A stretch of DNA of 64,000 nt from an uncultured Bacteroidales bacterium (GTDB taxonomy: Bacteria > Bacteroidota > Bacteroidia > Bacteroidales > VadinHA17): NCBI GenBank assembly GCA_963743775.1, contig CAVURA010000018.1, positions 142,518 to 206,517 on the forward strand, given 5' to 3'. Below the pieces are notes generated by a model, which made no database searches, was not told the DNA's origin, and worked only from the letters and a program-made list of their open reading frames with translations. The translations under genes were made by a program, and so were the position numbers. Each line of letters opens with the position of its first letter. Within the stretch, counting starts at the first letter, position 1. This document shows, piece after piece, positions 1-61,444 of this stretch.

Positions 1-8
1 CAACCCTC

Positions 9-1025
9 ATGATTGAGAAATTATTCAATGATGTGAGAACCATCATTGAGAGAGCCAGGGAGACTGCATTCAGGGCTGTAAACTTCACTATGGTTAAAGC
101 TTATTGGGAAGTAGGAAGGGTTATCGTTGAAGAAGAACAAAAAGGCAGCGCCAGGGCAGAATATGGAGCATACTTAGTGGAAAGTATATCAGACAAGTTG
201 TCAGCAGAATATGGGAAGGGGTTTGATAAAACTAACTTATGGAACATGATCAAGTTTTATCGTTCTTTCCCAATACTCGACGCACTGCGTCAAGAGTTAT
301 CCTGGACACATTACCGGATATTGTTGCGTATAGAAAAAGAACCCGCAAGGGAATTCTATATGCATGAATGTGTGGAAGGCAATTGGAGTACACGTCAATT
401 GGAGAGGCAGGTAAACAGCTTGTATTTTGAGCGTATATTGATGAGCAGCAAGAAAGGGCGACCCCTGGTAAAAAAAGAGGCTGATGGCAAAAAGGAAGTA
501 ATGCAGCCCGGACAAATAATAAAGGATCCCTATGTACTCGAGTTCCTGGATCTGAATCCCAATACAAATTTTTACGAGAAGGAAATAGAACAAGCCCTTA
601 TCGATAAGCTTCAGGGGTTCCTGCTGGAACTTGGAAAAGGCTTTTCATTCGTTGGCAGGCAATACAGAATATCAGCTGATACAAAACATTTTTATGTTGA
701 TCTGGTGTTTTACAATTATATCCTTAAGTGCTTTTTACTTATTGATCTGAAAACCGGGGAGCTGACGCATCAGGATATTGGACAGATGGATTTTTATGTC
801 AGGTACTTTGAGGATCAGGTAAGACAGAAATCTGACAATCCCACCATTGGGTTGATACTCTGTGCGGAAAAGGATAAGACGATAGCAAAATACAGTCTGT
901 TAAACGAAAGCAAACAGATCTTCGCTTCAAAATACAAGCTTTACATGCCAACCGTTAAGGAACTGCAACAGGAAATAACCAGGGAACGGCAAATAATAGA
1001 ACAGGAAAAAGGCCTGAAAGAATAA
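9..1025 (+). CDS. PDDEXK-family nuclease, YhcG/DUF1016-like
   Basis: 338-aa ORF with an ATG start. The N-terminal helical region (WTHYRILL, EFY..EC..GNWSTRQLERQ) and the C-terminal restriction-endonuclease-like core (FYVDLVFYN, LLIDLKTGELTHQDIGQM) fit the DUF1016 pattern. Confidence 0.75.
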   Translation: MIEKLFNDVRTIIERARETAFRAVNFTMVKAYWEVGRVIVEEEQKGSARAEYGAYLVESISDKLSAEYGKGFDKTNLWNMIKFYRSFPILDALRQELSWTHYRILLRIEKEPAREFYMHECVEGNWSTRQLERQVNSLYFERILMSSKKGRPLVKKEADGKKEVMQPGQIIKDPYVLEFLDLNPNTNFYEKEIEQALIDKLQGFLLELGKGFSFVGRQYRISADTKHFYVDLVFYNYILKCFLLIDLKTGELTHQDIGQMDFYVRYFEDQVRQKSDNPTIGLILCAEKDKTIAKYSLLNESKQIFASKYKLYMPTVKELQQEITRERQIIEQEKGLKE

Positions 1026-1117
1026 TCCCAGCAAGTTCGTTTAAAACTGCAACCACGGATTGCAGAAATGACTTAAACCTTTGGCTTTGCCAAGGTAGCT
1101 TCCACCATTACACTTGC

Positions 1118-1753
1118 TCAAATGATCTTTTGTTCACCCTTAGGGTACTCCGTAAAAACAATCACTCCGCCATTGTCAAATTTTAGCGTAAAACTATCAC
1201 CTCCAGCTTCGTTCAGGGTGCCTCGCCACCAGCTTGTGAGCTTAAGGTTTTGGAGTGGGTAGCGCAGCCCGGTTGACGTGACAGCTAGGCCGGGATCAAG
1301 GCTGAAGAGCGACACCTGCTGACCCGGAAATGAATCAATTGTAATGGTGCGGTCAAAAACCTGAAAAGAACCTGTATCGGTGAACATTTTAGCTTTAATA
1401 TCCCTGTTGTAGTCGGCCAGAAGGGCGATATTTCCAAGAGTATGGTCTTCGCGTATGCCTGTGGCGCCAAGTATGGCAACTTCCTTAATCCCCTGAGAGA
1501 CGCACCACTTAACGGCCTTGGTCAGGTCATTGGTCTCCTGATCAGCATCAGTCACCAGTATGCTCTTATATTTTCTTTTCAGCTCCGGGGAGACTGAGTC
1601 AAGATCCCCAATGATGATACCCGGCTCAATGCCGTGAGATACAAGCTTCTCCGCCGCTCCGTCGCAACAGACTGTCAGGTCAGCCTCTTCAAGGTATCTG
1701 ACCGGCACAGCATGTGACGGGTACTGTCCGTTTGCCAGGATTACTGTCTTCAT
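1118..1753 (-). CDS. thiamine pyrophosphokinase (TPK)
   Basis: 211-aa ORF with the catalytic region CCDGAA...IIGDLDS and a C-terminal thiamine-binding beta domain. It is the last gene of the TPP-riboswitch operon. Confidence 0.85.
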   Translation of the reverse strand: MKTVILANGQYPSHAVPVRYLEEADLTVCCDGAAEKLVSHGIEPGIIIGDLDSVSPELKRKYKSILVTDADQETNDLTKAVKWCVSQGIKEVAILGATGIREDHTLGNIALLADYNRDIKAKMFTDTGSFQVFDRTITIDSFPGQQVSLFSLDPGLAVTSTGLRYPLQNLKLTSWWRGTLNEAGGDSFTLKFDNGGVIVFTEYPKGEQKII

Positions 1754-1776
1754 ATTTTTGGTCTGATGTCAAAAGA

Positions 1777-1816
1777 ATTTGCGATTTGCGATTTGCGATT
1801 TGCGATTTGCGATTTA
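1777..1816. repeat. heptanucleotide microsatellite (ATTTGCG) x5 plus a partial unit
   Basis: Read directly: atttgcg repeated at 1777, 1784, 1791, 1798 and 1805, then attta. The last partial unit supplies the TAA stop of the pnuC-family gene on the minus strand. The array ends 24 nt upstream of the TPK start. Confidence 0.95.
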
Positions 1817-2644
1817 GCTGATCCTCAAATTCTTAATTCTTAATTGCTCCATGCCCCTTGCCCCTTGCTGCCGGCCCCATGCTCTCAGCCCGATCACCGC
1901 CATTGCCGTATAAACTGCAAACAGCACTGCGGTCGGATACATTTCCATCACAAGATATACAATTACAGCGATGGAGTTGGCCAGGATCCACACATACCAT
2001 TGTTCAATGATCTTTTTCGTCAGCATCCATGTGGCCACCACAGAAAGGGATGTGATCAGTCCGTCCCACAGCGGCACCGGAGAGTCCGTCCACCTGTCCA
2101 GTGAAAACCACAGTAATGCCCATAATCCCAGGGAGATTACAAGGCAAATTAAAGCTGTTTTACTATCGATCCTCCTGACATCACCTGTGGCGTTTGATTC
2201 TGCATCCTGTTTTCTGTGGCCTGTACCCTCTGCCAAGTGCTCTGAGCCCCCATCCCTGACTCTTCGCGGGATTTCCTCTTCGCTATCCGGCGAATTGTCA
2301 ACTTGCTCCTTGCCCCTTGCTCCTTGCTCTCCCGCTTCGCGGGACTGCCTCACTTCGTTCGCCAGCATGCCCCGTGCCCTCCCGCTTCGCGGGATTTTCT
2401 CTCTTCGTTCGTCAACATGCCATTTGTACCAACCGTAAATGCTGATTACAATATAGTATCCCTGCAGAACCATACCTGCATAGAAACCGTTTCTGCCAAA
2501 AACATATATATAAACGGCTGAGGTAAGAATACCCAGCGGCCACAGAAGTATGTTGCGTCTGATCTCGAGAATGACATAAGCTATTCCGGTTACAGCTCCA
2601 AAGACCTCAACAATATTTTCAGACAGCCATGTGATCATAGTCAT
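1814..2644 (-). CDS. pnuT: PnuC-family transporter (thiamine-type PnuT by context) with an in-frame hydrophilic insertion of about 80 aa
   Basis: 276-aa ORF with PnuC-like TM segments (FGAVTGIAYVILEI, YGWYKW, WDGLITSLSVVATWMLTKK, EQWYVWILANSIAVIVY). It sits between a TonB receptor and TPK, downstream of a TPP riboswitch. Residues about 76-157 are charged and low in complexity. Confidence 0.8.
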   Translation of the reverse strand: MTMITWLSENIVEVFGAVTGIAYVILEIRRNILLWPLGILTSAVYIYVFGRNGFYAGMVLQGYYIVISIYGWYKWHVDERREKIPRSGRARGMLANEVRQSREAGEQGARGKEQVDNSPDSEEEIPRRVRDGGSEHLAEGTGHRKQDAESNATGDVRRIDSKTALICLVISLGLWALLWFSLDRWTDSPVPLWDGLITSLSVVATWMLTKKIIEQWYVWILANSIAVIVYLVMEMYPTAVLFAVYTAMAVIGLRAWGRQQGARGMEQLRIKNLRIS

Positions 2645-5074
2645 CAGAAGGATAATGTGATACCAGCAGTGTAATTTATGCCTGCCTGCGGAAAATAGTA
2701 GGCCCAGGTCTTTTCAGCACCGTCTTCTGTCCACATCCCGCCGTAAGCATTGTTTTCATAGACGGCGTTGAACAGGTTGTTTATAATAAACCTGAGCATA
2801 AGCTCATCAAATCCTTTTAAATGAATTTTATAGCCTGCAGAAATGCTGCTGATAAAATACGGGTTGATAATCCTGTTTTCACTCATCGTATTGTCAAAGT
2901 ACTGTTTGCCAACATACTTTCCTGTCAGATTCAGTGAAAGGTTTTTCACAGGATTGACCTCGACCTCCGCAGACCCGGTTATGCGGGGTGAATAGGCTAT
3001 ATCCACTGTACCGAGGCTGGCTCGATGTATATTCTTCGCTCCAGTCGGATGTATCATAGTTGAAATAGAAATTCGTGAAGTTGGTGATCCTGCTCCGGCT
3101 GAGTGTGAGGTTCATCCTGAACGCAGCCAGAGGCGATGGCCTGTAGCTTCCCGAAAATTCAACACCTGTCCGGTAACTTTCCGGCACGTTTGTCATTATG
3201 GGGTACCCGGTGTTGCTTATCTTTCCGGTGGGGACAAGCTGATCGCGGTACAGCATATAGTAGAGATTGAGGCCCACTGAAAATGAAGCATTTCTGAAGG
3301 TGTAACCGCCCTCAAAATCCGTCAACCGTTCCTGTCCGGGTGTGGCCTCAGGGTCACCTGCAGCTTCCTTGAAGTCAGACCGTGTGGGTTCACGGTGAGC
3401 CACGGATACCGAAACAAAAGCATCGCTCCCTGCGCCGTTACTCCAGAACAGACCTGTCTTGGGATTGAAGAACCGGTACATATATTCCGCCGTGAGATCT
3501 TTCATGTCGCTGTCGGGTCCGTCAAAATGATATCTGATGTACCTGTACTGAAGGTCAAGAAAAGCGTTCAGGCTTCCGTTGACCCTGGCGTTAACCTTCC
3601 CGTAGATGCTGAACTCATCCTTCGTGCCGTTGTTCCTGTACCATTCATAATCAGGAGTGATATTTCCCGGGTGCTCCATCCAGATTAACCTTCCAAAATG
3701 ATCGCCGTCGTACCTGTTCAGTGCACCTCCAAAGGTCCACTCAGTCACGTTGCCCGCCTTTACAAGTGACCATACCGCACCGTAAAAATAGTTTTCAAGC
3801 CACTTACGTTGCACCAGATCAGTCTCAATCACCTCCATTCCGTCGTCAGTCAATCCGTACAGTCCGTATTCAGATGGATCGCAGTCGCTCTCCTGTTCTT
3901 CATAGTAGCCTGATCCGGCCGTCAGGTGCAGGCCGGTATTCAGGCTGACCTGTCCGGAGAAGAGATGGGTGTAGAAAAGGTTGTAGTGGTTCTGGGTGTA
4001 ATTGTCAGTCTCATTTTCATAATAGCGCAAGACGCCGTTAGCGTCAGTGTACTCACCTGCAGGATTATAACGCCTGTTCTCCGGCAGTACTTCTGCCGGC
4101 ACACCCCACCAGCTTATCCCTGTTTTTTCACTGCCGGTCAGGAAATTAAATCTCAGCCTGTTTGCAGGAGCGGACCAGATGCCTGTCACCATTGCCGATC
4201 GAATATCGGATGCGCTGTGATCAACATAGCCGTCACTGCCTATGAGAGATGCCCTGACCATCATATTGAACCTGTCGCCCAGGTTACCTGTCCATGCTTT
4301 TGCCGAGGCCCTGACGGTGTTAAAGGAACCGAAAGAAAGTGCAGCTTCTCCTCCCGGGTCATCCGGTGGTATCATTGAGCTTATATTCACTGATGCCCCG
4401 AAGGCGCCGGCACCGTTGGTCGATGTACCCACCCCGCGCTGTATCTGAATACTGCCTGTCGATGAAGCCAGGTCAGGCAGGTCGACCCAGAAAACCTGCT
4501 GTGATTCGGCATCATTGAGAGGTATCCCGTCGAGTGTGATGTTTATTCTGCTGGCATCACTGCCACGTATACGCAGCGAGGTATATCCGACACCGTTTCC
4601 CGCATCAGATGTCTCCACCACTGACGGGGTAAGAGCGAGAAGATACGGCATATCCCTCGTCAGATCGCGGGATCGCATCTCTGCAGCCAGAACGGTGCTG
4701 TGAGCCATTGGCGTTCGGCTGCCGGCACGGCTTCCTCTTACGATCACTTCGTCGGTCACAAAAAGGGCTTCCTTCAACGAAGCATCAACGACTGTATTCC
4801 TACTCACAACGACTACCGTATCAAAGGGCTCGAAGCCTGTGAAACTGATCCGGAGAGCGTACCTGCCATAATTCAAACCCCGAAGGGCATACTGCCCGTC
4901 ATTGCCCGTTGCCACACCGGCATTAAGGCTGTCAACGACTACTGATGCACCTGCAAGAGGCGCACCCTCGCTGTCAGTGACCGTGCCGCTGATGACGCCA
5001 CGGTTATTCTGTCCCTTAGATGCAGAGCAGACAAGCAAAATTGCAGTTAGAAATATTGAAAATTTCCTCACCAT
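2644..5074 (-). pseudogene. TonB-dependent outer-membrane receptor (thiamine-regulon type), split by a frameshift near 3000-3057
   Basis: The 726-aa ORF (2894..5074) has a signal peptide, a carboxypeptidase-regulatory-like N-terminus (GVISGTVTDSEGAPLAGASV), a plug and most of the barrel. The 137-aa ORF (2644..3057), in another frame, carries the last beta-strands and the terminal ...GITLSF. The two ORFs overlap, and only a frame switch gives a complete barrel. Confidence 0.8.
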
Positions 5075-5135
5075 AATAACTTAAATATAACTGACTTACT
5101 GTCAGAAGCGAGGGTGTGTCAACTGGCCGGAAATG

Positions 5136-5219
5136 ATTACTCTCGTTCCCTACGCCGGCATTATCCGGATCAGGTTGTAAGGGTATGATCTCAGCCTGTA
5201 TAATAAGGCACCCCGTAAT
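5136..5219 (-). promoter_or_regulatory. TPP (THI-box) riboswitch aptamer
   Basis: The minus strand reads attacGGGGTGCcttattatacaggCTGAGAtcatACCCttacaACCTGATCCGGATAATGCCGGCGTAGGGAAcgagaGTAAT. This matches the conserved GGGGUGC / CUGAGA / ACCUGAUCYGGAUAAUGCCRGCGUAGGGAA core, with P1 formed by attac/gtaat. It lies in the 5' UTR of the TonB receptor. Confidence 0.9.
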
Positions 5220-5228
5220 TCGACAGGA

Positions 5229-5236
5229 CAAATATA
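5229..5236 (-). promoter_or_regulatory. Bacteroidota -7 promoter box (TATATTTG) for the riboswitch operon
   Basis: The minus strand reads TATATTTG, which matches TAnnTTTG, about 10 nt upstream of the aptamer 5' end. Confidence 0.5.
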
Positions 5237-5294
5237 CTACAGATACGAATAAGTCAGTAAAAAGTTCATGTCAATCTTCCTGACCACTTATTAG

Positions 5295-5302
5295 TATATT
5301 TG
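5295..5302 (+). promoter_or_regulatory. Bacteroidota -7 promoter box (TATATTTG)
   Basis: TAnnTTTG match 17 nt upstream of the ATG at 5319. This argues against the GTG at 5304 as the start codon. Confidence 0.45.
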
Positions 5303-5318
5303 TGTGGAATGCAGATTC

Positions 5319-5744
5319 ATGAATATGGAGGAAATCCTAAAAAAACTCAAGTATAGTGATCAGGACCACATAGCTGTACTGAACGCACCGAAAGATTTTA
5401 TCAGGAAGCTGGACAAGACCTTACCCGGAGTCCAGATAGACACTGAGATCAATGCCCGTTTCCTGTATGACTTCATGATTATATTCACCCCGGATTCGAA
5501 TGAGGTAAAAAGGTTTGGGCCGAAAGGCATTCACAACCTTGCTGATGACGGCAAGCTCTGGATGGTTTATCCCAAGGGAACATCGCGGAAATATTCCAGC
5601 GACATTAATCGTGACCACGGGTGGGAAGCTGTTTTAGAGACCGGTATGAGGCCAGTCAGCCAGGTGTCTGTTGACGATGACTGGTCAGCGCTCCGTTTCA
5701 GGAACGCCAGGTATATAAGATCAGCAAATGGTAGTCACAGATGA
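5319..5744 (+). CDS. hypothetical protein, DUF3052-like
   Basis: ORF trimmed to the first ATG (MNMEEIL...). The pattern AVLNAP...LWMVYPKGTSRKYSSDINRD.GW....G...V.QVSVDDDWSALRF resembles DUF3052. Its stop overlaps the next gene's start (ATGA). Confidence 0.55.
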   Translation: MNMEEILKKLKYSDQDHIAVLNAPKDFIRKLDKTLPGVQIDTEINARFLYDFMIIFTPDSNEVKRFGPKGIHNLADDGKLWMVYPKGTSRKYSSDINRDHGWEAVLETGMRPVSQVSVDDDWSALRFRNARYIRSANGSHR

Positions 5745-7225
5745 GAAGACTGATAATAATATCATTCTTTTTTCTTTTGCTCAACTCTTGTGCAGATAAT
5801 GATTACGACAAGTTTTATACAGGGGAGGTGGAATTTCCTGCCAATCCGCCCCACGGTGTCAAGGAGGCCATGGCCGCACGTGTCATACCCCACCCGCGTC
5901 AGCTTGCCTGGCAGCAGCTTGAGATGACAGCGTTCATCCACTTCAGCATAAACACCTTCACGGACAGGGAATGGGGCAACGGTGATGAACCTCCGGAGCT
6001 GTTCAATCCTGTCTCTCTTGACGCGGAACAGTGGGTCAGGGTACTCAGTGACGCAGGGATGAAGATGGTCATTATCACGGCGAAACATCACGACGGCTTT
6101 TGTCTCTGGCCAACAAAAACGACCAGCCACTCGGTAGCCTCAAGTCCATGGAAGGAAGGCAAGGGCGATGTGATACGGGAGCTCAGGGATGCATGCGAAA
6201 AGTACAATATGAAATTCGGGATTTACCTCTCTCCGTGGGACCGCAATGCGGAGTGTTACGGTGATTCGCCGGCGTACAATAAATTCTACCTGGAGCAGCT
6301 GACCGAGCTGCTTACCTGGTACGGCAAGGTTGATGAGGTATGGTTTGACGGTGCCCAGGGGGTGGATCGCCGAGGCAGGAGGCAGGTGTATGACTGGCAG
6401 TCCTACTATGATCTCATCAGGAAACTGCAACCCGACGCCGTTACTGCAATTATGGGCGAAGATGTGAGATGGGTAGGAACGGAGACAGGTTACGGTCGGG
6501 AGACTGAGTGGAGCGTGACGGCGCTGGCCCCAGGCGGCACACCGGAGAGCCGGGCAATAAATGAAGCGCTGGGCCTGAACCCTGCTTCGCTGGACCTCGG
6601 CAACAGCGCTCTTCTTCAGAAAGCCGGAAAGGTCTTCTGGTACCCTGCTGAGGTCGATGTTTCAATTCGCCCGGGATGGTTCTGGCATTCAGCAGAAGAC
6701 AGCCTCGTGAAAGACCCTGACAAGCTGCTCGATATCTATTTCAGCTCCGTGGGCCGTAACGCCGTACTGCTTCTGAATGTCCCGCCCGACAACCGCGGAC
6801 TTATAACAGATAATGATATTAACAGCCTGATGGGGCTCAAAGCCCGTATAGATGATCTCTATGACACTGATCTCCTTAACGGTGCCCGCCCATACGGAAA
6901 AGGAGCAGCAAGGGCCATAGACGGTGACAGTACCACGTCATGGACCCCCAATCACCAGAGGGTTGCGTCCTTCATTCCCGCGATAGCAGTTAATTTCAAC
7001 GTGGCAATGTTGCAGGAAGATATCAGCAAGGGACAGAGGGTGGAGAAGTTTGTTATTGAAGCACGGCTGGACCAGCAGTGGGATACAGTGGCTGCGGGTT
7101 CTACCATTGGTTACAAGCGACTGCTTCGTTTTCCCGATTTTAAGGCCGACGAGATAAGGCTCACAATAATTTCCTCACGGGCAAGACCTAATATCAGCAC
7201 CTTCGCTCTTTACCATATAGAGTGA
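5741..7225 (+). CDS. alpha-L-fucosidase (GH29) with a C-terminal F5/8-type-C-like domain
   Basis: 494-aa ORF with a lipoprotein-type signal (LLLNSC). It has the GH29 motifs QLAWQQLEMTAFIHFSINTF and ITAKHHDGFCLWPT, and a C-terminal discoidin-like region (AIDGDSTTSW). Confidence 0.85.
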   Translation: MRRLIIISFFFLLLNSCADNDYDKFYTGEVEFPANPPHGVKEAMAARVIPHPRQLAWQQLEMTAFIHFSINTFTDREWGNGDEPPELFNPVSLDAEQWVRVLSDAGMKMVIITAKHHDGFCLWPTKTTSHSVASSPWKEGKGDVIRELRDACEKYNMKFGIYLSPWDRNAECYGDSPAYNKFYLEQLTELLTWYGKVDEVWFDGAQGVDRRGRRQVYDWQSYYDLIRKLQPDAVTAIMGEDVRWVGTETGYGRETEWSVTALAPGGTPESRAINEALGLNPASLDLGNSALLQKAGKVFWYPAEVDVSIRPGWFWHSAEDSLVKDPDKLLDIYFSSVGRNAVLLLNVPPDNRGLITDNDINSLMGLKARIDDLYDTDLLNGARPYGKGAARAIDGDSTTSWTPNHQRVASFIPAIAVNFNVAMLQEDISKGQRVEKFVIEARLDQQWDTVAAGSTIGYKRLLRFPDFKADEIRLTIISSRARPNISTFALYHIE

Positions 7226-7271
7226 AACTATACCGCTGAACTACTGATATTTCCAGAATTATTTGAAGCCC

Positions 7272-7853
7272 TTACCTCTTCAGGTGGCTCATCATCCACC
7301 AGCGCTGACGCTCTTCTTCTGATTTGTGGAAGATCTTCTTGTTGACATATTTTATGGCTTCCACGGTGTACAGTGCACGGGGATTGTAGAGATTGATAAG
7401 ATCAAGCACTTCCTTAATCATACTTCTGCGTGCAATGATATAGATGACAGCGACTTCTCCCTCTATTCCCTGCGCTTTGACGTTTGTGAAACCATAGCCT
7501 CTGTCGCTGAGTTCGGCGATCAGGTTGGTTGCATCCTTTCGGGTGATAACCCTTATCATCTCATGGCCTATTGCGAGCCTTTCCTCAAGCAGCATCCCGA
7601 CAAAATTGCCCGTCGCAAACCCGGCAGCATATGCAACATAGCAAACCCAGTTATCAAGGTCCTGCATTATACGGCTTATTGCCAGCAGCCAGATAAGAAC
7701 CTCAAAGAATCCGAAAAACGGGGCAACTCTCTTCATGCCCTTGGTGACAAAAATGATCCTCAGCGTGCCGAGGGAGACATCCATAATGCGGGCCACAAAG
7801 ATGAAGAGTGGCAGCAGAAGGTATGTAACTAATTCTGAATTAATGAATTCCAT
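7272..7853 (-). CDS. UPF0316/DUF2179 family membrane protein
   Basis: Trimmed to the ATG at 7853 (MEFINSELVTYLLLPLFIFVARIMDVSLGTLRIIF...). It has three TM segments plus a C-terminal DUF2179-like domain (TRKDATNLIAELSDRGYGFT). Confidence 0.7.
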   Translation of the reverse strand: MEFINSELVTYLLLPLFIFVARIMDVSLGTLRIIFVTKGMKRVAPFFGFFEVLIWLLAISRIMQDLDNWVCYVAYAAGFATGNFVGMLLEERLAIGHEMIRVITRKDATNLIAELSDRGYGFTNVKAQGIEGEVAVIYIIARRSMIKEVLDLINLYNPRALYTVEAIKYVNKKIFHKSEEERQRWWMMSHLKR

Positions 7854-7891
7854 GATAAAGTCAACTTTTTTAGAAGTTCCTAAGTTATGAT

Positions 7892-7899
7892 TATTTTTG
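7892..7899 (+). promoter_or_regulatory. Bacteroidota -7 promoter box (TATTTTTG)
   Basis: TAnnTTTG match 28 nt upstream of the ATG at 7927. It overlaps the TTG at 7897 offered by the ORF track, which favours the 7927 start. Confidence 0.4.
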
Positions 7900-7926
7900 A
7901 GACAGATACTCCCTGAACAACTGCAC

Positions 7927-9099
7927 ATGAGATTTCTCAAGGTATGCCTGTTTTTAGTTACCATTCTCCTGCCCGGGCTGTCGGCCGGTCAGGAGGCTGA
8001 CAGCGGCCCCACTCTTCCGCCGGCCGGTCAGGAGGCTGACAGCGTACTCACGGTCATGTTCACAGGAGACATCATGGGCCACGACGGACAGATCACATCA
8101 GCATATGATGATTCCACCGGGACTTATTCCTACGACAGTGTTTTCAGATATGTCTCACCGCTTTTAAGCGCAGCTGATATTGCCATTGGCAACCTTGAGG
8201 TCACCCTTGGCGGAAAACCATTCAAGGGGTATCCTGCCTTCAGTTCTCCTGATGAGTTGGCACAAGCATGCAGGGATGCGGGGTTTGACATACTTACCAC
8301 GGCGAACAATCACGCTGCAGACCGCGGACCAAAAGGAATAGCCCGTACCATCAGGGTACTTGACAGTCTCAATATCAAGCATACAGGTACGTGGATAAAC
8401 AGCGAAGCAAGAGACACACTCTCTCCCCTGATGATTTCTGCGAAAGGCATCAGTCTGGCATTGCTCAGTTATACTTACGGCACCAACGGAATAGTGGTGC
8501 CTCCTCCTGCCGTCGTATCTTATATGGATACAATCCGTATCTGTAATGATATTAAGGCTTCTGCTGAAAAGGGAGCTGACCTTGTCATAGTGAGCGTTCA
8601 CTGGGGAACAGAATATGACACCCTCCCCTCAGCTGAACAAAAACGGCTGGCTGCCGCCATGTTCAGAAGCGGCGCTGATATCATCATCGGATCGCATCCT
8701 CATGTGATACAGCCTATGACAGCATTGGTTGATTCCACTGAATTGACGGAACCTGTGGTTTGGTCAATGGGCAATTTCGTATCAAACCAGCGTCAGCAGA
8801 GAAGAGACGGAGGAGCCATGATCGGTCTTGAGCTGACGAAAAGAGGTGACCGGGTCTTTATAACTGAGGCAGGATATATCCTTACATGGGTTTATACCCC
8901 GACAGAAAACGGGAAACGCAGGTTCTGCATCCTGCCCTGCTCCGAATATGAGAACCATCCTGAGTTCTTCCAGTCGTCGTCTGACTATAATGCCATGATG
9001 GACTTTGTCACTGGTGCACGCCGGCTTCTCAACAGCTCGAACACCGGCTTCGGTGAAGTCATCAGTGCGCTCGACATGTGGACAAATCAGGTAAAGTAA
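7927..9099 (+). CDS. CapA/PGA_cap family metallophosphatase-like protein
   Basis: Signal peptide MRFLKVCLFLVTILLPGLSAG, followed by FTGDIMGHD, NLEV.L and TTANNHAADRG, which are typical of CapA. Confidence 0.8.
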   Translation: MRFLKVCLFLVTILLPGLSAGQEADSGPTLPPAGQEADSVLTVMFTGDIMGHDGQITSAYDDSTGTYSYDSVFRYVSPLLSAADIAIGNLEVTLGGKPFKGYPAFSSPDELAQACRDAGFDILTTANNHAADRGPKGIARTIRVLDSLNIKHTGTWINSEARDTLSPLMISAKGISLALLSYTYGTNGIVVPPPAVVSYMDTIRICNDIKASAEKGADLVIVSVHWGTEYDTLPSAEQKRLAAAMFRSGADIIIGSHPHVIQPMTALVDSTELTEPVVWSMGNFVSNQRQQRRDGGAMIGLELTKRGDRVFITEAGYILTWVYTPTENGKRRFCILPCSEYENHPEFFQSSSDYNAMMDFVTGARRLLNSSNTGFGEVISALDMWTNQVK

Positions 9100-18775: not shown

Positions 18776-21700
18776 TCAGAACCGGAAGTAGATAAAAGGC
18801 TGCAGGACTTCCGTACCCACCTTATTAAGCAGAATGGCGACTCCTATCGCGATCAGAAACTTTATCACCATGGGCATCCTGATGAAGAGCCCCCTGTATG
18901 CTTCCTTGACAGTAACAGGAAGAAAATGCAGTATATAGCCTGATGCAATAAGGATGAGGACAGGCAGATACGCCATGAGAACCACCCTGTAGTTTCCCGG
19001 ACTGAAGGAAGAAAATATCTGTGACAGCATAACGCCTGCATCTTCCAAAGATCCTGCACGGAAAAAGATCCAGGCAAAGCTCACAAAGTTAAAGGTTATG
19101 ATTATCCCGGCAAGGTGGGCAATACGGCTTTTCCTTTTCACACCCCGGAAGATCCATTGCCATATCCTGTCTAACACCAGCGCTATGCCGTGCAATCCGC
19201 CCCAGAGCACGAATCTTGTTGCCGCACCATGCCACAGGCCTCCGATCAGCATCGTTACCATTAAGCTAATTCCTGTGCGTACCGCTCCATGCCGGTTTCC
19301 TCCGAGAGGTATATAAAGGTAATCTTTCAGCCACCTTGACAGGGTAATATGCCACCGTTTCCAGAAATCACTGATGTTCGACGCCTTGTATGGAGAGTTG
19401 AAGTTCAGTGGCAGCCTGAACCCCATCAGCATGGCGACACCGATTGCAATATCAGTGTAGCCTGAGAAATCGCAGTAGATCTGAAGGCCGTATCCGTAAA
19501 CTGACATAAGGTTCTCGAAGCCTGAATATAGCGCGGGTGTATCAAAAACCCTGTCAATGAAACCGGCGGCTATAAAATCAGAAATGATCACCTTCTTTAT
19601 CAGCCCTTGCAGGATCAGGAACAGGCTGTGTCCGAACTCATTACGGCTGATGGTATATTCTCCCTTCATCTGGGGGACAAACTCAGAGGCCCTTACGATC
19701 GGACCCGCAACCAGCTGCGGGAAAAAGGTATGATAGAAGGAGTAGTCTATAAAGTTTCTGACCGGCTCTATCTTACCCCTGTAAACATCAATGTTATAGC
19801 TTAAAGCCTGAAAGGTGAAGAATGATATACCAATAGGGAGTATAATCTGTGATACATCAAAACTGGTACCGAACACATTGTTTGACCAGGCTGAGAAGAA
19901 ATCATAGCTCCTGAATGATGTGCCAAGAAGGGAATTAATGCTTTCGGTAAAGAAGCCTGCATATTTGAAATAAGAAAGTAATCCCAGCGAAACAATAATA
20001 TTAAGGATGAGCCAGAATCTCTTCATCGGTCTGCCATTGGCCCTGTTTGTGTACAATGCTGTCAGGTAGGTCGAAACGCAGCTGAACAGCAGGAGGATAA
20101 AGAAGAGGCCTCCTGCTTTATAATAAAAATATAGACTGACCAGTAAGAGCCAGGTGTGGCACATTGCCCTTTTATTCCTGATAAGGGCAAAACCGGCCAT
20201 TACAACCAGGAGGAAGACCCAGAATGCCGGCGTTGTAAAAATAAAAGTCTTCTGCGGATTATATTTAAGGAATGTCAGAACAGATCTATGGTGCTCAGCA
20301 TGCGGTTCTTCAACTGTTAACACAGTATCGGCAACAGAAGATGCTGCGGTTTCAGGAACAGGAATCACTCCGGGGTCAGATGCCGCCAGAAGTGTATCAG
20401 GAGGTTTACTTACTGCCGTGGTCCTGGCTATAAGCAGATCCGAATAGATCTTTAAAGCTATCGTGTCTGCCCCTGCATTGGAGAGATGAGTGAGATCCTT
20501 TCCGGCCAGGGGCGGCATATGATTATACCACCTGACTATTGAGCCCTTGCCTCCCATGGCTTCCCAGGCATCCCAGAATATCACTCCGCTTCGTACCGCT
20601 GCTCTTTTCTGGGCATCCCTGATAGCCGGGATATTCTTGTATGGTATGATTGTATCTTCTGATTTCAGGGCCATGTCGGTCAGGCTGACAAGGACCACCG
20701 GAGCGCCGCCCGAAACATTTCTGAGCCAGTCTACCTGCTTGGCAAGACCCTCCTCATAATAATGGTACTCGCTCCTGACATTTCTGACAACATTAAGTCC
20801 GAACTGATGGAATATCATGTCAGGGTGAAGCTTCGAAAAACAACCTGCAACACCTTCCGGATCAGTCATCACAAACTCGAGCCCGGCACTGCCTCTGACG
20901 GGGATATTATCAACAATCACCCCATGGTTGCTTTCCAGGCTGAGGGCATAAATATCCGGAGAGCTGCGACCGGTGAATTCAATTGTGACATCTGAAAGTG
21001 ATGGTAGCGGTGTGCTGTATTCAAGTGGGCCTTCACCTGTCTCAAGCATTGCGAAATCAAGCAGTTTACTGCCTGACCTTACGCTTACGAATACCGTATC
21101 AGGATTATTCCCATAGAATATCCGCAGATTCTCATATTTTGAAACTGATTCGTCGGCTCCGGGAACAGGTGTGATTTTAACCGAGGCATAAAGAGGTGTT
21201 CTCAGCGTGTCCTGCGGAGGTTTGAAACGGCAGACAGCGAGCATTGGTCCAAGCCTGTTGTGGGGCAGCACTCCGCTTCTGTAATCAAGCAGGGTGTACC
21301 TGACCCAGTTGGCCGATGACTTGACGACGTATGAGCGGGTATACATCACGGGCATGACAGGCGATATCAGCCCCGGGCCCGTTCCGCCGCCGCTTTCTCT
21401 AAGCTGTTTGCGAAGGAAAGAGGTCATCCTGTCACCCTCAATCTGCGAATCACCGTAGAACATTATTCTTACCTGCTTCCCGGCGGCAAGCGAATCTCTT
21501 ATCGCATCACCTGGAAAGAAAGGAGTGACAGTAACACGGTTCACGGAATCTTTCAATGCCGGGGCGGGCAGGGAGTCACGTGTGATCACCTCTGGCGGGG
21601 CTGTACCAGGCAGAACTGCCGCATGAGTGGCCGTGTCAGCCTTAACTGACTGAACCGGAACTGTATCAGCCAGCACTTCCTGAACCGGAACAGAATCAGC

Positions 21701-21847
21701 CGGAACAGATTGTTGCAGCAAGGTGTCAGAGGGTACTTTGAACAACGACTTATCACCCCAGAGCCTCCCGTCACCGGCTGCAAGGCTCAGGATAAACAGC
21801 GTCAGAACGACTGCCAGCAAAAAAAGAAAGATCCTGCCGGGGCGCAT
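18776..21847 (-). CDS. fusion protein: N-terminal TM anchor + SGNH/GDSL-like domain + C-terminal MBOAT (AlgI/PatA-like) O-acyltransferase
   Basis: 1023-aa ORF. The SGNH blocks are FYGDSQIEG (block I Ser), GLNV (block III) and DLTH (block V DxxH). The MBOAT region has FFTFQALSY, QLVAGPIVR, YCDFSGYTD, FWKRWHITLSRWL.DYLYIPLGGNR and GLWHGA. Confidence 0.8.
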   Translation of the reverse strand: MRPGRIFLFLLAVVLTLFILSLAAGDGRLWGDKSLFKVPSDTLLQQSVPADSVPVQEVLADTVPVQSVKADTATHAAVLPGTAPPEVITRDSLPAPALKDSVNRVTVTPFFPGDAIRDSLAAGKQVRIMFYGDSQIEGDRMTSFLRKQLRESGGGTGPGLISPVMPVMYTRSYVVKSSANWVRYTLLDYRSGVLPHNRLGPMLAVCRFKPPQDTLRTPLYASVKITPVPGADESVSKYENLRIFYGNNPDTVFVSVRSGSKLLDFAMLETGEGPLEYSTPLPSLSDVTIEFTGRSSPDIYALSLESNHGVIVDNIPVRGSAGLEFVMTDPEGVAGCFSKLHPDMIFHQFGLNVVRNVRSEYHYYEEGLAKQVDWLRNVSGGAPVVLVSLTDMALKSEDTIIPYKNIPAIRDAQKRAAVRSGVIFWDAWEAMGGKGSIVRWYNHMPPLAGKDLTHLSNAGADTIALKIYSDLLIARTTAVSKPPDTLLAASDPGVIPVPETAASSVADTVLTVEEPHAEHHRSVLTFLKYNPQKTFIFTTPAFWVFLLVVMAGFALIRNKRAMCHTWLLLVSLYFYYKAGGLFFILLLFSCVSTYLTALYTNRANGRPMKRFWLILNIIVSLGLLSYFKYAGFFTESINSLLGTSFRSYDFFSAWSNNVFGTSFDVSQIILPIGISFFTFQALSYNIDVYRGKIEPVRNFIDYSFYHTFFPQLVAGPIVRASEFVPQMKGEYTISRNEFGHSLFLILQGLIKKVIISDFIAAGFIDRVFDTPALYSGFENLMSVYGYGLQIYCDFSGYTDIAIGVAMLMGFRLPLNFNSPYKASNISDFWKRWHITLSRWLKDYLYIPLGGNRHGAVRTGISLMVTMLIGGLWHGAATRFVLWGGLHGIALVLDRIWQWIFRGVKRKSRIAHLAGIIITFNFVSFAWIFFRAGSLEDAGVMLSQIFSSFSPGNYRVVLMAYLPVLILIASGYILHFLPVTVKEAYRGLFIRMPMVIKFLIAIGVAILLNKVGTEVLQPFIYFRF

Positions 21848-36119: not shown

Positions 36120-38272
36120 TCGGTCTTTAAGGGCGCTTCAGGTATTGCCGGTTCTTCAGGCTTGTCGGCCTCTTCAGATCTTGCAGGTTCAGCAACCTTT
36201 GCAGTCTCTTCAGCCTTTGCGGGTTCAGCAAACTTTGCAGTCTCTTCAGCCTTCGCGGGTTCAGCAACCTTTGCAGTCTCTTCAGCCTTCGCGGGTTCAG
36301 CAAACTTTGCAGTATCCTCGGTCAGGCTTTTGGAAATGTCGCCTCTTCTCTTGCCGAAGATACGCTCCAGGTCCTCACTGAAGATGACTTCCTTTTCAAG
36401 CAGCTGCTCGGCAAGTTTGGTGAGTCCGGCAATATTTGCAGAAATAACCTCTTTAGCCTTATTGTACGATACTTCCACAATCTTTTTTGCCTCGTGATCA
36501 ATAAGTTCGGCTGTTTTTTCGCTGTACGGCTTTGTAAAGCCATATTCTGACTGTCCTGATGAATCGTAGAAACTCACGTTACCAACCTCTTCCGACATAC
36601 CGAAATAGGCCACCATGGCATAAGCCTGTTTGGTTACCTTTTCCAGGTCGCTGAGGGCTCCTGTAGATATTTTTCCTATCACCAGTTCTTCTGCAGCCCT
36701 TCCTCCGAGAGCGTATGCAAGCTCATCAAGGATATGTTCCCGGGTGGAAATCGACCTCTCCTCCGGCAGATACCATGCTGCTCCGAGGGCTTTGCCCCTG
36801 GGTATGATGGTCACCTTAAGCAGGGGACTGGCATATTCAAGGAGCCAGCTTACAGTGGCATGTCCTGCCTCATGATAGGCAATCGTCCTCTTTTCTTCAA
36901 AAGAAACAATCTTGTTTTTTTTCTCCAGGCCGCCAATGATCCTGTCAATAGCATCAAGGAAGTCCTGCTTCTCAACCACATTTTTATTTCCTCTCGCTGC
37001 TATCAGTGCTGCTTCGTTACAGACATTAGCTATGTCAGCGCCGGAGAAACCGGGTGTGTTTTTGGCAAGGAAGGTTACATCAAACCCTTCCTCAAGTTTT
37101 ATAGGACGGAGGTGCACCTTGAAGATGGCTTCACGCTCCCTTATGTCAGGCAGCTCGACATTTATCTGACGGTCAAAGCGTCCTGCCCGGAGCAATGCCT
37201 TGTCCAGGATATCAGCCCTGTTTGTGGCGGCAAGTATGATGACACCGCTGTTGGTTCCGAAACCGTCCATCTCAGTCAGGAGCTGGTTAAGAGTGTTCTC
37301 ACGCTCGTCATTGGCTCCGAAGTTCGGGTTACGGCCACGGGCACGTCCCACTGCATCTATCTCATCAATGAAAACGATACAGGGAGCTTTCTCCTTTGCC
37401 TGTTTGAAGAGATCCCTGACTCGCGACGCGCCTACACCAACAAACATCTCAACAAAGTCTGATCCTGAAATGGAAAAGAAGGGCACATTGGCTTCGCCGG
37501 CGACAGCCTTGGCCAGCAGTGTCTTGCCAGTGCCGGGAGGGCCTACCAGCAACGCACCCTTGGGTATCTTGCCTCCCAGGCTGGTATATTTTTTCGGGTT
37601 CTTGAGAAAATCCACTATCTCCATCACCTCTGTCTTGGCCTCCTCGAGACCGGCTACATCGCTGAAATTAGTCTTGATGTGTGTGTCCTTGTCAAATATC
37701 TGCGCCTTCGATTTGCCAACGCTGAAGATGTTACCTGCACCCCCGCCGCCGGCACCTCCTGACATGCGTCTCATGAAGTAGATCCAGATCAGTGCTATAA
37801 GCAGAAACGGAAGGATGACACCAAGGAATGTCGACAGGTAATCTTTCCTGGTCTGGTATTCGGGATGTATCCACTCATCCTGGGTGTAGCCTGCTTTCTC
37901 CTGCATCGCGGAGAAAAACTCTTCAAACAGCTCAACAGTACCAAAACTGTGATAGTACTGCGGCCTCGGAGGTTGTATCCCGAAGCCTTTCTGCCTGGCA
38001 AAATCAGAATATTTTTCCTTCTTCAGGGCTTCAGGCTTTAGATAAATCTCAGCCTGCTCCTTGTTAACAACAACCACCTTTTCAATGTCATGACTGGTGA
38101 TCATGTCCTCTATTTCCCTCTGACTGGCTTTCTTTGTGTATTTGCCGTTAAAAAGCACCTGGATTGCTATAAAGGCCAGAAGAAGTATAAAAAAGAACCA
38201 GTTTGTATTAAACTTAGGCTTCAGCTTTTTATCATTCGTATTTGACTTCAATGGATCCTTGTTCTCTGCCAT
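36116..38272 (-). CDS. ftsH: ATP-dependent zinc metalloprotease FtsH with a repeat-containing acidic C-terminal tail
   Basis: Walker A GPPGTGKT, the SRH region and the zinc motif HEAGHA. The tail is built from [11 protein letters not shown](F/V) repeats. Confidence 0.95.
36183..36313. repeat. 36-bp tandem repeat (about 3.6 copies) inside the ftsH 3' end
   Basis: Units start at 36183, 36219, 36255 and 36291 (gc[ag]ggttcagcaa[ac]ctttgcagtctcttcagcctt[tc]). They are in frame, at 12 aa per unit. Confidence 0.95.
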
Positions 38273-61310: not shown

Positions 61311-61329
61311 AAAAAACTAATTTAAAAAA

Positions 61330-61363
61330 GAAGGCTGTCACATCACGGGCAGTCTTTTTTTTT
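61330..61363 (+). terminator. rho-independent terminator after the hexahaem cytochrome gene
   Basis: Stem aaggctg/cagtctt (one G-U pair), followed by a run of T. Confidence 0.65.
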
Positions 61364-61407
61364 GAAATAAAAGAAGGCCGTGTTTCATCAGAGGCAGCTT
61401 TATTTAG

Positions 61408-61444
61408 AATAAAAAGGAAGGCTGCTTCGTTGGAGGCAGCCTTC
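61408..61444 (-). terminator. rho-independent terminator after the monohaem cytochrome c (61467..61877)
   Basis: Perfect 9-bp stem gaaggctgc/gcagccttc. The minus strand continues cTTTTTatt. Confidence 0.65.

Follow-up and report, generated by a model that had tools for sequence, protein, structure and literature searches.

Why should the gene of a vitamin transporter carry, in the middle and at the end of its coding sequence (CDS), stretches of tandem heptanucleotides and small DNA hairpins? The question is raised by the pnuT gene of an uncultured Bacteroidales bacterium (assembly GCA_963743775.1), located on the minus strand at 1814..2644 of a 64 000 nt stretch of contig CAVURA010000018.1, hereafter the window. 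The open reading frame (ORF; 276 aa) matches PF04973 (Pnu/NMN_transporter) with E=9e-50, above the curated cut-off, and is named PnuT, a Pnu-family thiamine transporter, because of its setting in a thiamine operon with the order thiamine pyrophosphate (TPP) riboswitch, TonB-dependent receptor, pnuT, tpk. An insertion divides the PF04973 match in two at about profile position 70/71. This loop insertion, the 20 aa C-terminal tail and the 60 nt spacer between pnuT and tpk are all composed of heptamer arrays and hairpin modules of about 50 nt. We consider it likely that loop, tail and spacer are resident copies of a clade-specific, normally intergenic heptamer-plus-hairpin repeat, translated and tolerated in loop and tail, and that the frameshift alleles found in relatives are a by-product of their presence.

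Repeat composition of the pnuT loop, tail and spacer

A first-pass annotation of the window, made from the sequence alone, had described a PnuT loop and C-terminal tail built from short repeats, and Tandem Repeats Finder (TRF) recovered every repeat it had listed at about the same position. The four heptamers placed at 2303..2330 are CTTGCTC x4.0 at 2302-2329; the direct repeat of about 50 bp with a hairpin is a 50 nt unit, x2.1, at 2318-2421 (83% matches), within which exact copies of the hairpin TCCCGCGAAGCGGGA stand at 2330-2344 and 2380-2394; and the heptamers and aattctt units of the tail are TTGCCCC x3.6 at 1844-1868 and AATTCTT x2.6 at 1828-1845. The reading frame survives all of them, as had been noticed. 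Three components had escaped attention, namely a perfect ATTTGCG x5.6 array at 1777-1815 (100% matches), which overlaps the pnuT stop codon and occupies the spacer, a third, degenerate module at 2246-2279, and a 7 nt periodicity extending through the whole loop.

Read in the sense of the gene (all features lie on the minus strand), the hypervariable loop comprises 83 aa (residues 76-158; 2171..2419) directly after the codon of an invariant tryptophan, W75, as delimited by alignments, identity at a lag of 7 nt and an AlphaFold2 (AF2) model. The first 50 nt module (2368..2417; nhmmer match 2369-2433) has its hairpin at 2380-2394 read as IPRSGRA, and the second (2318..2367; nhmmer match 2317-2378, E=3e-16) has its hairpin at 2330-2344 read in another frame as QSREAGE. 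Against this second hairpin lie the four heptamers (GAGCAAG/GGGCAAG; 2302..2329), which encode EQGARGKEQ and are four perfect GAGCAAG units in the related locus L109. The degenerate third module, found by repeat search (2246..2300; hairpin remnant 2258-2272), encodes ...EEEIPRRVRD, shares 79% and 68% identity with the two others and folds as RNA at -18 kcal/mol (z=-2.65). The remainder of the loop (2171..2245) parses into a decayed heptamer tract, ..GGTACAG GCCACAG AAAACAG GATGCAG.., at the place where locus L004 has perfect GGCACAG arrays. The tail (residues 257-276; 1817..1876) directly follows the codon of a second invariant tryptophan, W256, and consists of GCAAGGG-type and AAGAATT heptamers, while the perfect array at 1777..1815, (ATCGCAA)x5.6 in the sense of the gene, extends over part of the stop codon and makes up the spacer before tpk. 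The same ATCGCAA unit also stands after pnuT in L003, L012 and L025, and before thiS in L108.

At two or fewer mismatches TCCCGCGAAGCGGGA gave three matches against 0.05 expected from shuffles, and GCAAGGGGCAAGG-like sites numbered seven against 1.7 expected, five of the seven being within pnuT. Lag-7 identity is 0.42 in both halves of the loop, including the seemingly non-repetitive half at 2170-2300, compared with about 0.29 at other lags; it reaches 0.61 in tail plus spacer, and the conserved pnuT core has no lag-7 periodicity. The longest perfect runs inside the CDS are of 2.1-2.6 units; of the perfect x5.6 array, only 2 nt of the stop codon belong to the CDS. A single 7 nt register running from the A255-W256 codons to the tpk leader was considered and dropped, because the boundaries of unrelated units are arbitrary, and only the lag-7 autocorrelation was kept. 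TRF, hairpin and motif scans found no further copies of the pnuT repeats in the window.

Reading frames of the repeats

One 15 nt hairpin is read in two ways within this one protein because the 50 nt period is not a multiple of three. Homologues carry it as AVPRSGRA or as RQSREAGE, and the EQGARSK-type heptapeptides are (GAGCAAG)3 read through three frames. In L109 an earlier stop codon leaves the AAGAATT and ATCGCAA arrays of the tail non-coding (with about three ATCGCAA copies against 5.6 in the window), and the C-terminal tail of the window protein is read-through into the spacer repeats. Many relatives share the C-terminus ...LRIKN, since (AAGAATT)n holds TAA and stops translation within three units in any entry frame. 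A search of 5.8 billion proteins with an 81 aa loop peptide gave four word-sharing candidates, none significant, and hence no sign of in-frame copies in other protein families, in a test that is weak for low-complexity sequence. On the readings described, the repeats act at the level of DNA and not of protein.

Sites of insertion and close relatives

Homologues of the window PnuT numbered 1362, and the 120 closest range in size from 196 to 339 aa. An alignment of 30 sequences, of the kind that the first-pass annotation had called for, contains two sites that are hypervariable in both length and sequence, the loop bounded by W75 and the tail bounded by W256, both tryptophans being invariant. 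In the 85 loci that have both anchors, loop length varies between 36 and 327 nt, with 45-48 nt as the basal value in many lineages. Among repeat-free alleles the nearest, L112, lacks the entire insertion in a gene whose core DNA is about 90% or more identical to that of the window; its loop is 45 nt against 246 nt. The window loop of 83 aa is about 67 aa longer than the repeat-free one of about 16 aa. By DNA alignment L109 is the window gene minus one 50 nt module (the first), L110 has the first two modules in common with the window and then diverges, and all module combinations occur among protein variants of the window's lineage. The window gene is itself a mosaic. Its N-terminal core is 100% identical to that of L110 and its C-terminal core is closest to that of L109 (93%, versus 89% for L110), and the repeat region therefore coincides with a recombination junction, a coincidence that suggests recombination within the repeats.

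The AF2 model, computed from the 30-sequence alignment and used for helix positions only (mean pLDDT, the predicted local distance difference test score, is only 58.8), has seven long helices and a short one in the loop. It places the insertion between predicted transmembrane helices TM3 (residues 55-82) and TM4 (161-185), with pLDDT below 50 for residues 109-159, and the PnuT profile matches PnuC (4QTN) with E=4e-6 in two stretches that flank the corresponding TM3-TM4 loop. For PnuT_Sw, the proposed cytoplasmic gate residue is W88, which ends TM3, with W199 as its pseudo-symmetric partner (PMC5749112). By analogy, W75 and W256 may correspond to this pair, and both repeat sites would then face the cytoplasm; the Arg/Lys-rich translation of the repeats is consistent with such a location. 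In a seven-helix Pnu core, with two three-helix bundles joined by TM4, the loop site falls where the first bundle ends and the TM4 linker begins, and a long disordered linker is most plausibly accommodated there.

A dispersed and normally intergenic repeat family

Metagenome contigs of the Joint Genome Institute (JGI) were searched for an exact 19-mer that spans the hairpin. The 19-mer matched 29 stretches, of which three were pnuT genes and about 11 contigs, representing eight distinct contexts, were true non-pnuT copies with conserved flanks; the other matches were due to chance, in unrelated high-GC DNA. The same 19-mer had no match in viral contigs. The true copies have the architecture [GCAWGGR]n-GCTGGCGA-(optional hairpin 1)-GAGG-hairpin 2-[RGCAWGG]n, in which a module is about 50 nt with a 6 bp GC hairpin and a GAA loop, and the accompanying heptamers are GCAWGGR, AAGAATT, ATCGCAA and others; in L108 an ATCGCAA-type array comes after this architecture. 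Wherever the flanking genes could be read, the copies are intergenic: between carB and a GNAT gene, ahead of a 5'-nucleotidase gene, upstream of thiS, and beside an SNase gene. A profile built from 21 copies showed that L001, L002 and L003 contain more intergenic copies, some 10 kb away from pnuT, where a pcrA/uvrD-like gene has its 3' end. All inspected period-7 arrays outside pnuT are likewise intergenic.

Rfam (E<=1), applied to ten element-bearing loci and to positions 1-8000 of the window, returned only a tRNA and the TPP riboswitch, with no match to the repeat. No terminal inverted repeats were found around the copies in L099, L080, L108 and L002, whose flanks are direct heptamers, and there is no recognisable target-site duplication around four intergenic copies. 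The GTAG/CGTC tag is absent from the 21 aligned copies, in which the stem is flanked by GGCAGT...AGRGCA. Stem variants in this alignment break pairs without compensation; as single-stranded DNA the hairpin, at -6.6 kcal/mol (z about -3), is a stable one given its size, and as RNA the modules are unremarkable (folding z -2.65 to +0.2). The earlier suggestion of an element resembling REP (repetitive extragenic palindromic) sequences or MITEs (miniature transposable elements with inverted repeats) was correct in that the hairpin unit belongs to a dispersed family, but it fails on the terminal inverted repeats and on the tag. This family of heptamer arrays and GC-hairpin modules, dispersed in uncultured Bacteroidales, is undescribed.

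The 3' end of the pcrA/uvrD-like helicase gene forms a second conserved home of the repeats (L002 19890-20030; L055 15050-15071; L001 19797-19847; L003 20162-20226), where (AGGCAGT)3 lies directly 3' of the gene end and hairpin modules follow, the stop codon apparently being at or within the array. A hairpin module of another kind, GAAATGATCCGGTGGATCATTT, read as ..RALRNDPV(D/G)H(F/L)SE.., was seen in L055 (10255-10370), in L084 (678-974) and in the loop of protein P0051. It occurs in pnuT loops and in an intergenic copy, so that several types of module belong to the family. Another branch of the clade (L016, L020, L022 and L036; P0097 and P0105) has loop units of about 20-25 aa, repeated two to seven times (..EARRASGIVEPG..), which take P0097 to 339 aa. 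In L108 modules and an ATCGCAA-type array (700-900) lie directly upstream of thiS, on a contig with no detectable TPP riboswitch. A link between the repeats and thiamine genes was considered and rejected as only marginal, with one of the eight contexts (thiS) in its favour; the array in L063 is not beside the riboswitch.

Concentration of period-7 arrays at pnuT

A census of exact arrays in 80 loci (79 orthologous loci and the window; 1.36 Mb) counted 58 period-7 arrays in the pnuT zones (60.7 kb) against 26 outside them (1.30 Mb), a 47-fold difference in density. The period-8 excess is similar (13 versus 6), and periods 5 and 6 are not enriched at pnuT. Across the 85 loci lag-7 periodicity is a property of loops and tails and not of cores. 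Placement recurs from genome to genome, with AAGAATT in the tail, ATCGCAA after the stop codon and GCAWGGR or GCAGTCR in the loop. The arrays adjoin the tryptophan codons directly, and in L001 the same 22 nt follow TGG at both sites.

Gain and loss of heptamer units in relatives

Within clusters of at least 90% identity, PnuT proteins differ in length by steps of 7 aa (HRAQGTG x1, x2 or x3; KEQGARS x1 or x3; 250 versus 243 aa). The P0104 cluster, 57% identical to the window protein, contains alleles with identical anchors and 7, 8, 10 or 12 units, on contigs from different samples. Alleles of 7 units (L119, L120) and 10 units (L116) are in frame and encode 243 and 250 aa, respectively; those of 8 units (L114 and L115, which differ in internal order) and 12 units (L117) are out of frame, L114 ending at TAG after 102 aa. 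Arrays of up to 71 nt together with their anchors (12 + 22 nt) occupy at most 105 nt, below the 119 that appears in the contig names (k119_...) and that we took as the assembly k-mer; if k=119, one k-mer spans each such array and the 8-unit alleles therefore have the support of reads and are not guesses of the assembler, the 12-unit allele, at 85 nt, being borderline in this respect. P0159 (L118) diverges into unrelated sequence and was left out of the allele count; P0156 has both anchors and 12 units, runs off its contig and is uninformative as to length; P0193, P0194, P0210 and P0220 are not among the resolved cluster members. P0145 has its frameshift upstream of the repeats.

Gain and loss of heptamers that shifts the frame is real in these relatives. 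The frameshift idea of the first-pass annotation is thus borne out for the P0104 relatives, with their out-of-frame alleles of 8 and 12 units, and not for the window gene itself. There, a frameshift switch is plausible and its switching propensity probably low, because the tracts within the CDS are short and imperfect. Between strains, the window tract differs from that of L109 by a point difference and the loss of a module.

Contigs L115, L117, L088 and L102 also break inside heptamer arrays, short-read assemblies being fragmented by these repeats, and L012 (1-55) has a contig end in (AACCTTT)x7.9. Gene callers split or shorten these pnuT genes, giving products of 102 and 177 aa. With contigs breaking in the arrays as well, pnuT annotation and presence/absence calls in this clade are therefore unreliable.

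Interpretation and alternatives

Our working interpretation is that copies of the repeat would reside where PnuT tolerates extra sequence, after the tryptophan that ends TM3 and after its pseudo-symmetric counterpart that ends TM7, and would be translated there into a disordered, charged linker and tail. The tract would evolve by gain and loss of 7 nt units, presumably through slippage, by gain and loss of whole modules, and by recombination. Changes of three units (21 nt) would yield the 7 aa length variants; other changes of unit number would give frameshifted, null or split alleles, mostly removed by selection. The anatomy of the repeats, their dispersal, the intergenic status of the other copies, the reading of one DNA in two frames and the allelic series in relatives are observed, and the translated peptide would have no function of its own.

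Several observations sit uneasily with this interpretation. A 47-fold concentration at one gene, among relatives down to 35-45% identity, exceeds what simple tolerance predicts, and other tolerant loops and tails in the 1.3 Mb of flanking genes carry no arrays. A 53 nt module, the second copy of the window gene, is identical at 53 of 53 positions in the window and in L043, although the C-terminal cores of the two genes are 77% identical and agree at only 54% of third codon positions. Neutral residence does not account for this identity, which suggests that modules have spread recently, are subject to gene conversion, or are constrained by selection on the DNA or RNA. Neither a mobilising enzyme nor a target duplication nor a mechanism of insertion was found, and the copy number, apparently tens rather than hundreds per genome, is a rough estimate made within 1.4 Mb around pnuT loci and short metagenome contigs. 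The strong and persistent colonisation of one gene is the part that tolerance leaves without explanation.

A rival reading, to which we give perhaps a fifth of the weight, is that pnuT is an adaptive contingency locus, in which heptamer tracts are kept for the reversible on/off switching of thiamine uptake within populations; the possible benefits include avoidance of toxic thiamine analogues or of a phage injection route, and bet-hedging in vitamin cross-feeding. The series of 7, 8, 10 and 12 units from several independent samples, including two 8-unit alleles of different internal order, would fit such a locus, as would the period-7 enrichment at pnuT and the persistence of perfect, hence young, arrays in lineages at 40-60% identity. 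Two further broken loops, those of L043 and L055, the latter shifted inside a heptamer run, could be added, but both come from long-read metagenome-assembled genomes and the L055 shift is at a G-run, so that sequencing error is possible. Set against these points, 83 of the 85 loci are in frame, the tracts within the window CDS are imperfect and contain at most 2.6 perfect copies while the long perfect array lies outside the CDS, and frameshift alleles are expected from any repeat tract within a gene and do not by themselves prove selected switching. Similarly doubtful, and no better than a minority view, is the wider notion of a clade-wide, long-kept frameshift switch in the vitamin B1 facilitator, with tracts seeded directly after the gate tryptophan codons and cells always on, off or length-tuned.

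Alternatively, the repeats may be a cis-acting RNA or DNA element, one that for example fixes the ratio of pnuT to tpk as a 3' stabiliser or processing site, their translation being incidental; the unstructured (AUCGCAA)n spacer could in addition serve as a leader for Shine-Dalgarno-independent translation of tpk. We regard this as improbable. It accords with the 53/53 module being more conserved than its neighbouring codons, with the placement of about six of the eight intergenic copies, close behind the 3' end of a gene and in the same sense as that gene, with the replacement of hairpin 1 by a different hairpin rather than its loss, and with the spacer RNA (1745-1820, minus strand), which folds worse than 198 of 200 shuffles (z=+1.9). 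Heptamers just upstream of start codons have also been proposed as post-transcriptional regulator sites in other phyla (PMC4679880). Yet the folding z scores of the module RNAs are weak, variant copies break stem pairs uncompensated, the hairpins are followed by no U-tract and match nothing in Rfam, the whole element is missing from pnuT of close relatives such as L112, and ribosomes would melt any hairpin within the CDS. Apart from this argument, the (AUCGCAA)5.6 leader before tpk is unusually unstructured, a property of possible importance to Shine-Dalgarno-independent initiation in Bacteroidota.

That loop and tail form a cytoplasmic domain or linker under selection, for instance one that docks thiamine kinase or regulates gating, is very unlikely and largely refuted: the insertion does adjoin the putative cytoplasmic gate tryptophan and many relatives have long loops, but one DNA serves two reading frames, the loops have no conserved peptide in common, the loop is 15 aa long in close relatives whose cores are about 86% identical, the tail is non-coding in L109, and the region is predicted to be disordered. 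The idea of a 'domesticated' insertion is likewise unsupported, with the same DNA in different frames, absent from close relatives and non-coding in L109. An artefact of assembling or sequencing a repetitive region can be dismissed almost entirely, since the ORF is intact and independent contigs from other samples (L109, L110, L111, L043 and L001) reproduce the modules at the same place, L109 and L110 each reproducing one half of the architecture, even though a 1 nt indel in the upstream receptor gene of the window makes assembly indel errors possible.

Neighbouring genes and other repeats of the window

The other parts of the operon also lie on the minus strand. At its head, a TPP riboswitch (5129..5225) was identified by RF00059, which scored 62.3 bits (gathering score 54.3; E=1e-10). 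The TonB-dependent outer-membrane receptor gene (2644..5074), recognised by its Plug and CarboxypepD_reg domains and by alignment to L110, is broken into two overlapping ORFs, 2644-3057 and 2894-5074, by a 1 nt insertion near 3023. Compared with the near-identical contig L110 the window reads ACATCGAGCC versus ACCTC-AGCC, at a site that is not repetitive, and the insertion marks either a real pseudogene or an assembly indel. Downstream of pnuT, tpk (1118..1753; PF04263, 1e-28; PF21275, 5e-16) encodes thiamine pyrophosphokinase, the operon's trapping enzyme. This gene order recurs in L109, L116 and L119.

A tandem repeat at 36170-36313 (36 nt unit x4, 92% matches) had been suspected as kin of the pnuT repeats through a common CTTCGCGGG; it is an unrelated in-frame coding repeat, apparently giving 12 aa Ala/Glu/Lys-rich repeats on the minus strand. 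TRF also reported a 43 nt unit x2.3 with a hairpin-like GGCCTGTCACATCACAGGC core and a 30 nt unit x2.4 (61324-61422 and 21636-21706 of the window).

Relation to known repeat systems

Of known kinds, Rickettsia palindromic elements, heptanucleotide long simple-sequence repeats and classical contingency loci come nearest to the pnuT repeats. In contingency loci, such as those of Haemophilus and Neisseria, tetra- or pentanucleotide tracts slip within a CDS. The pnuT repeats resemble them in having a unit that is not a multiple of three inside a CDS (2302-2329, 1844-1868 and 1828-1845 lie in the ORF) and in the natural alleles of a related lineage, which vary in whole units, some of them in frame and others not. 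They differ in their target, an inner-membrane vitamin facilitator of environmental Bacteroidales rather than a surface antigen or restriction system, and in the short, degenerate tracts of the window, where contingency loci have a long perfect tract that switches reversibly and at high frequency.

The heptamers of cyanobacterial short tandemly repeated repetitive (STRR) sequences belong among the heptanucleotide repeats. Like these and the long simple-sequence repeats (LSSRs), for which seven is likewise a favoured unit length, the present arrays are tandem, mostly intergenic, often beside start or stop codons, patchy in phylogeny and variable in copy number. LSSRs of 7 nt units were described by Mrazek et al. 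(2007), as summarised in PMC4679880, and TAACTGA repeats occur in Beggiatoaceae, Cyanobacteria and Bacteroidetes (PMC4679880). The units here are others (GCAWGGR, GCAGTCR, AAGAATT and ATCGCAA), are joined to conserved hairpin modules and are concentrated in one gene. They are also translated, whereas TAACTGA in its forward orientation is not translatable because of its stop codons.

Rickettsia palindromic elements (RPEs) are dispersed palindromic repeats that lie in frame in protein-coding genes (reviewed in PMC10969869), and the likeness is that of a non-autonomous hairpin repeat translated in a host protein at a permissive position without destroying the protein (PMC10969869). RPEs are about 150 bp long and have one conserved peptide frame, whereas here units of about 50 nt and heptamer arrays are read in two or three frames. 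Furthermore, RPEs are in frame in many unrelated genes, while the present element is met across its clade at the same pair of sites in a single gene, its non-pnuT copies (eight contexts) being intergenic where flanks are readable.

With REP sequences and bacterial interspersed mosaic elements (BIMEs) the modules share short GC-rich palindromes, dispersal and a location mainly just downstream of genes. The two large REP superfamilies are marked by a GTAG/CGTC tag (PMC3733652); the stems here have flanks of CAGT on one strand and CTCT on the other. Unlike BIMEs, the modules are direct tandem copies rather than inverted pairs and have heptamer arrays alongside, and the roughly estimated copy number is low for REP sequences. 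MITEs, too, are small, non-autonomous and dispersed, and are sometimes fused in frame to ORFs; the four intergenic copies differ from them in their lack of terminal inverted repeats and target-site duplication.

Biological significance

Repeats of an intergenic type can thus be carried, translated, at a domain boundary of a membrane transporter with an essential fold. The approximately 85 orthologous loci and their natural allelic series make heptamer gain and loss directly readable, and the series may be useful for the unresolved dominance of 7 nt units among bacterial long simple-sequence repeats. It is interesting to speculate that thiamine uptake may be switchable by repeat slippage in those environmental communities that cross-feed vitamin B1. 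A clade-wide switch, if true, would amount to a phase-variable inner-membrane nutrient transporter in free-living anaerobes, with a new dispersed repeat as its driver.

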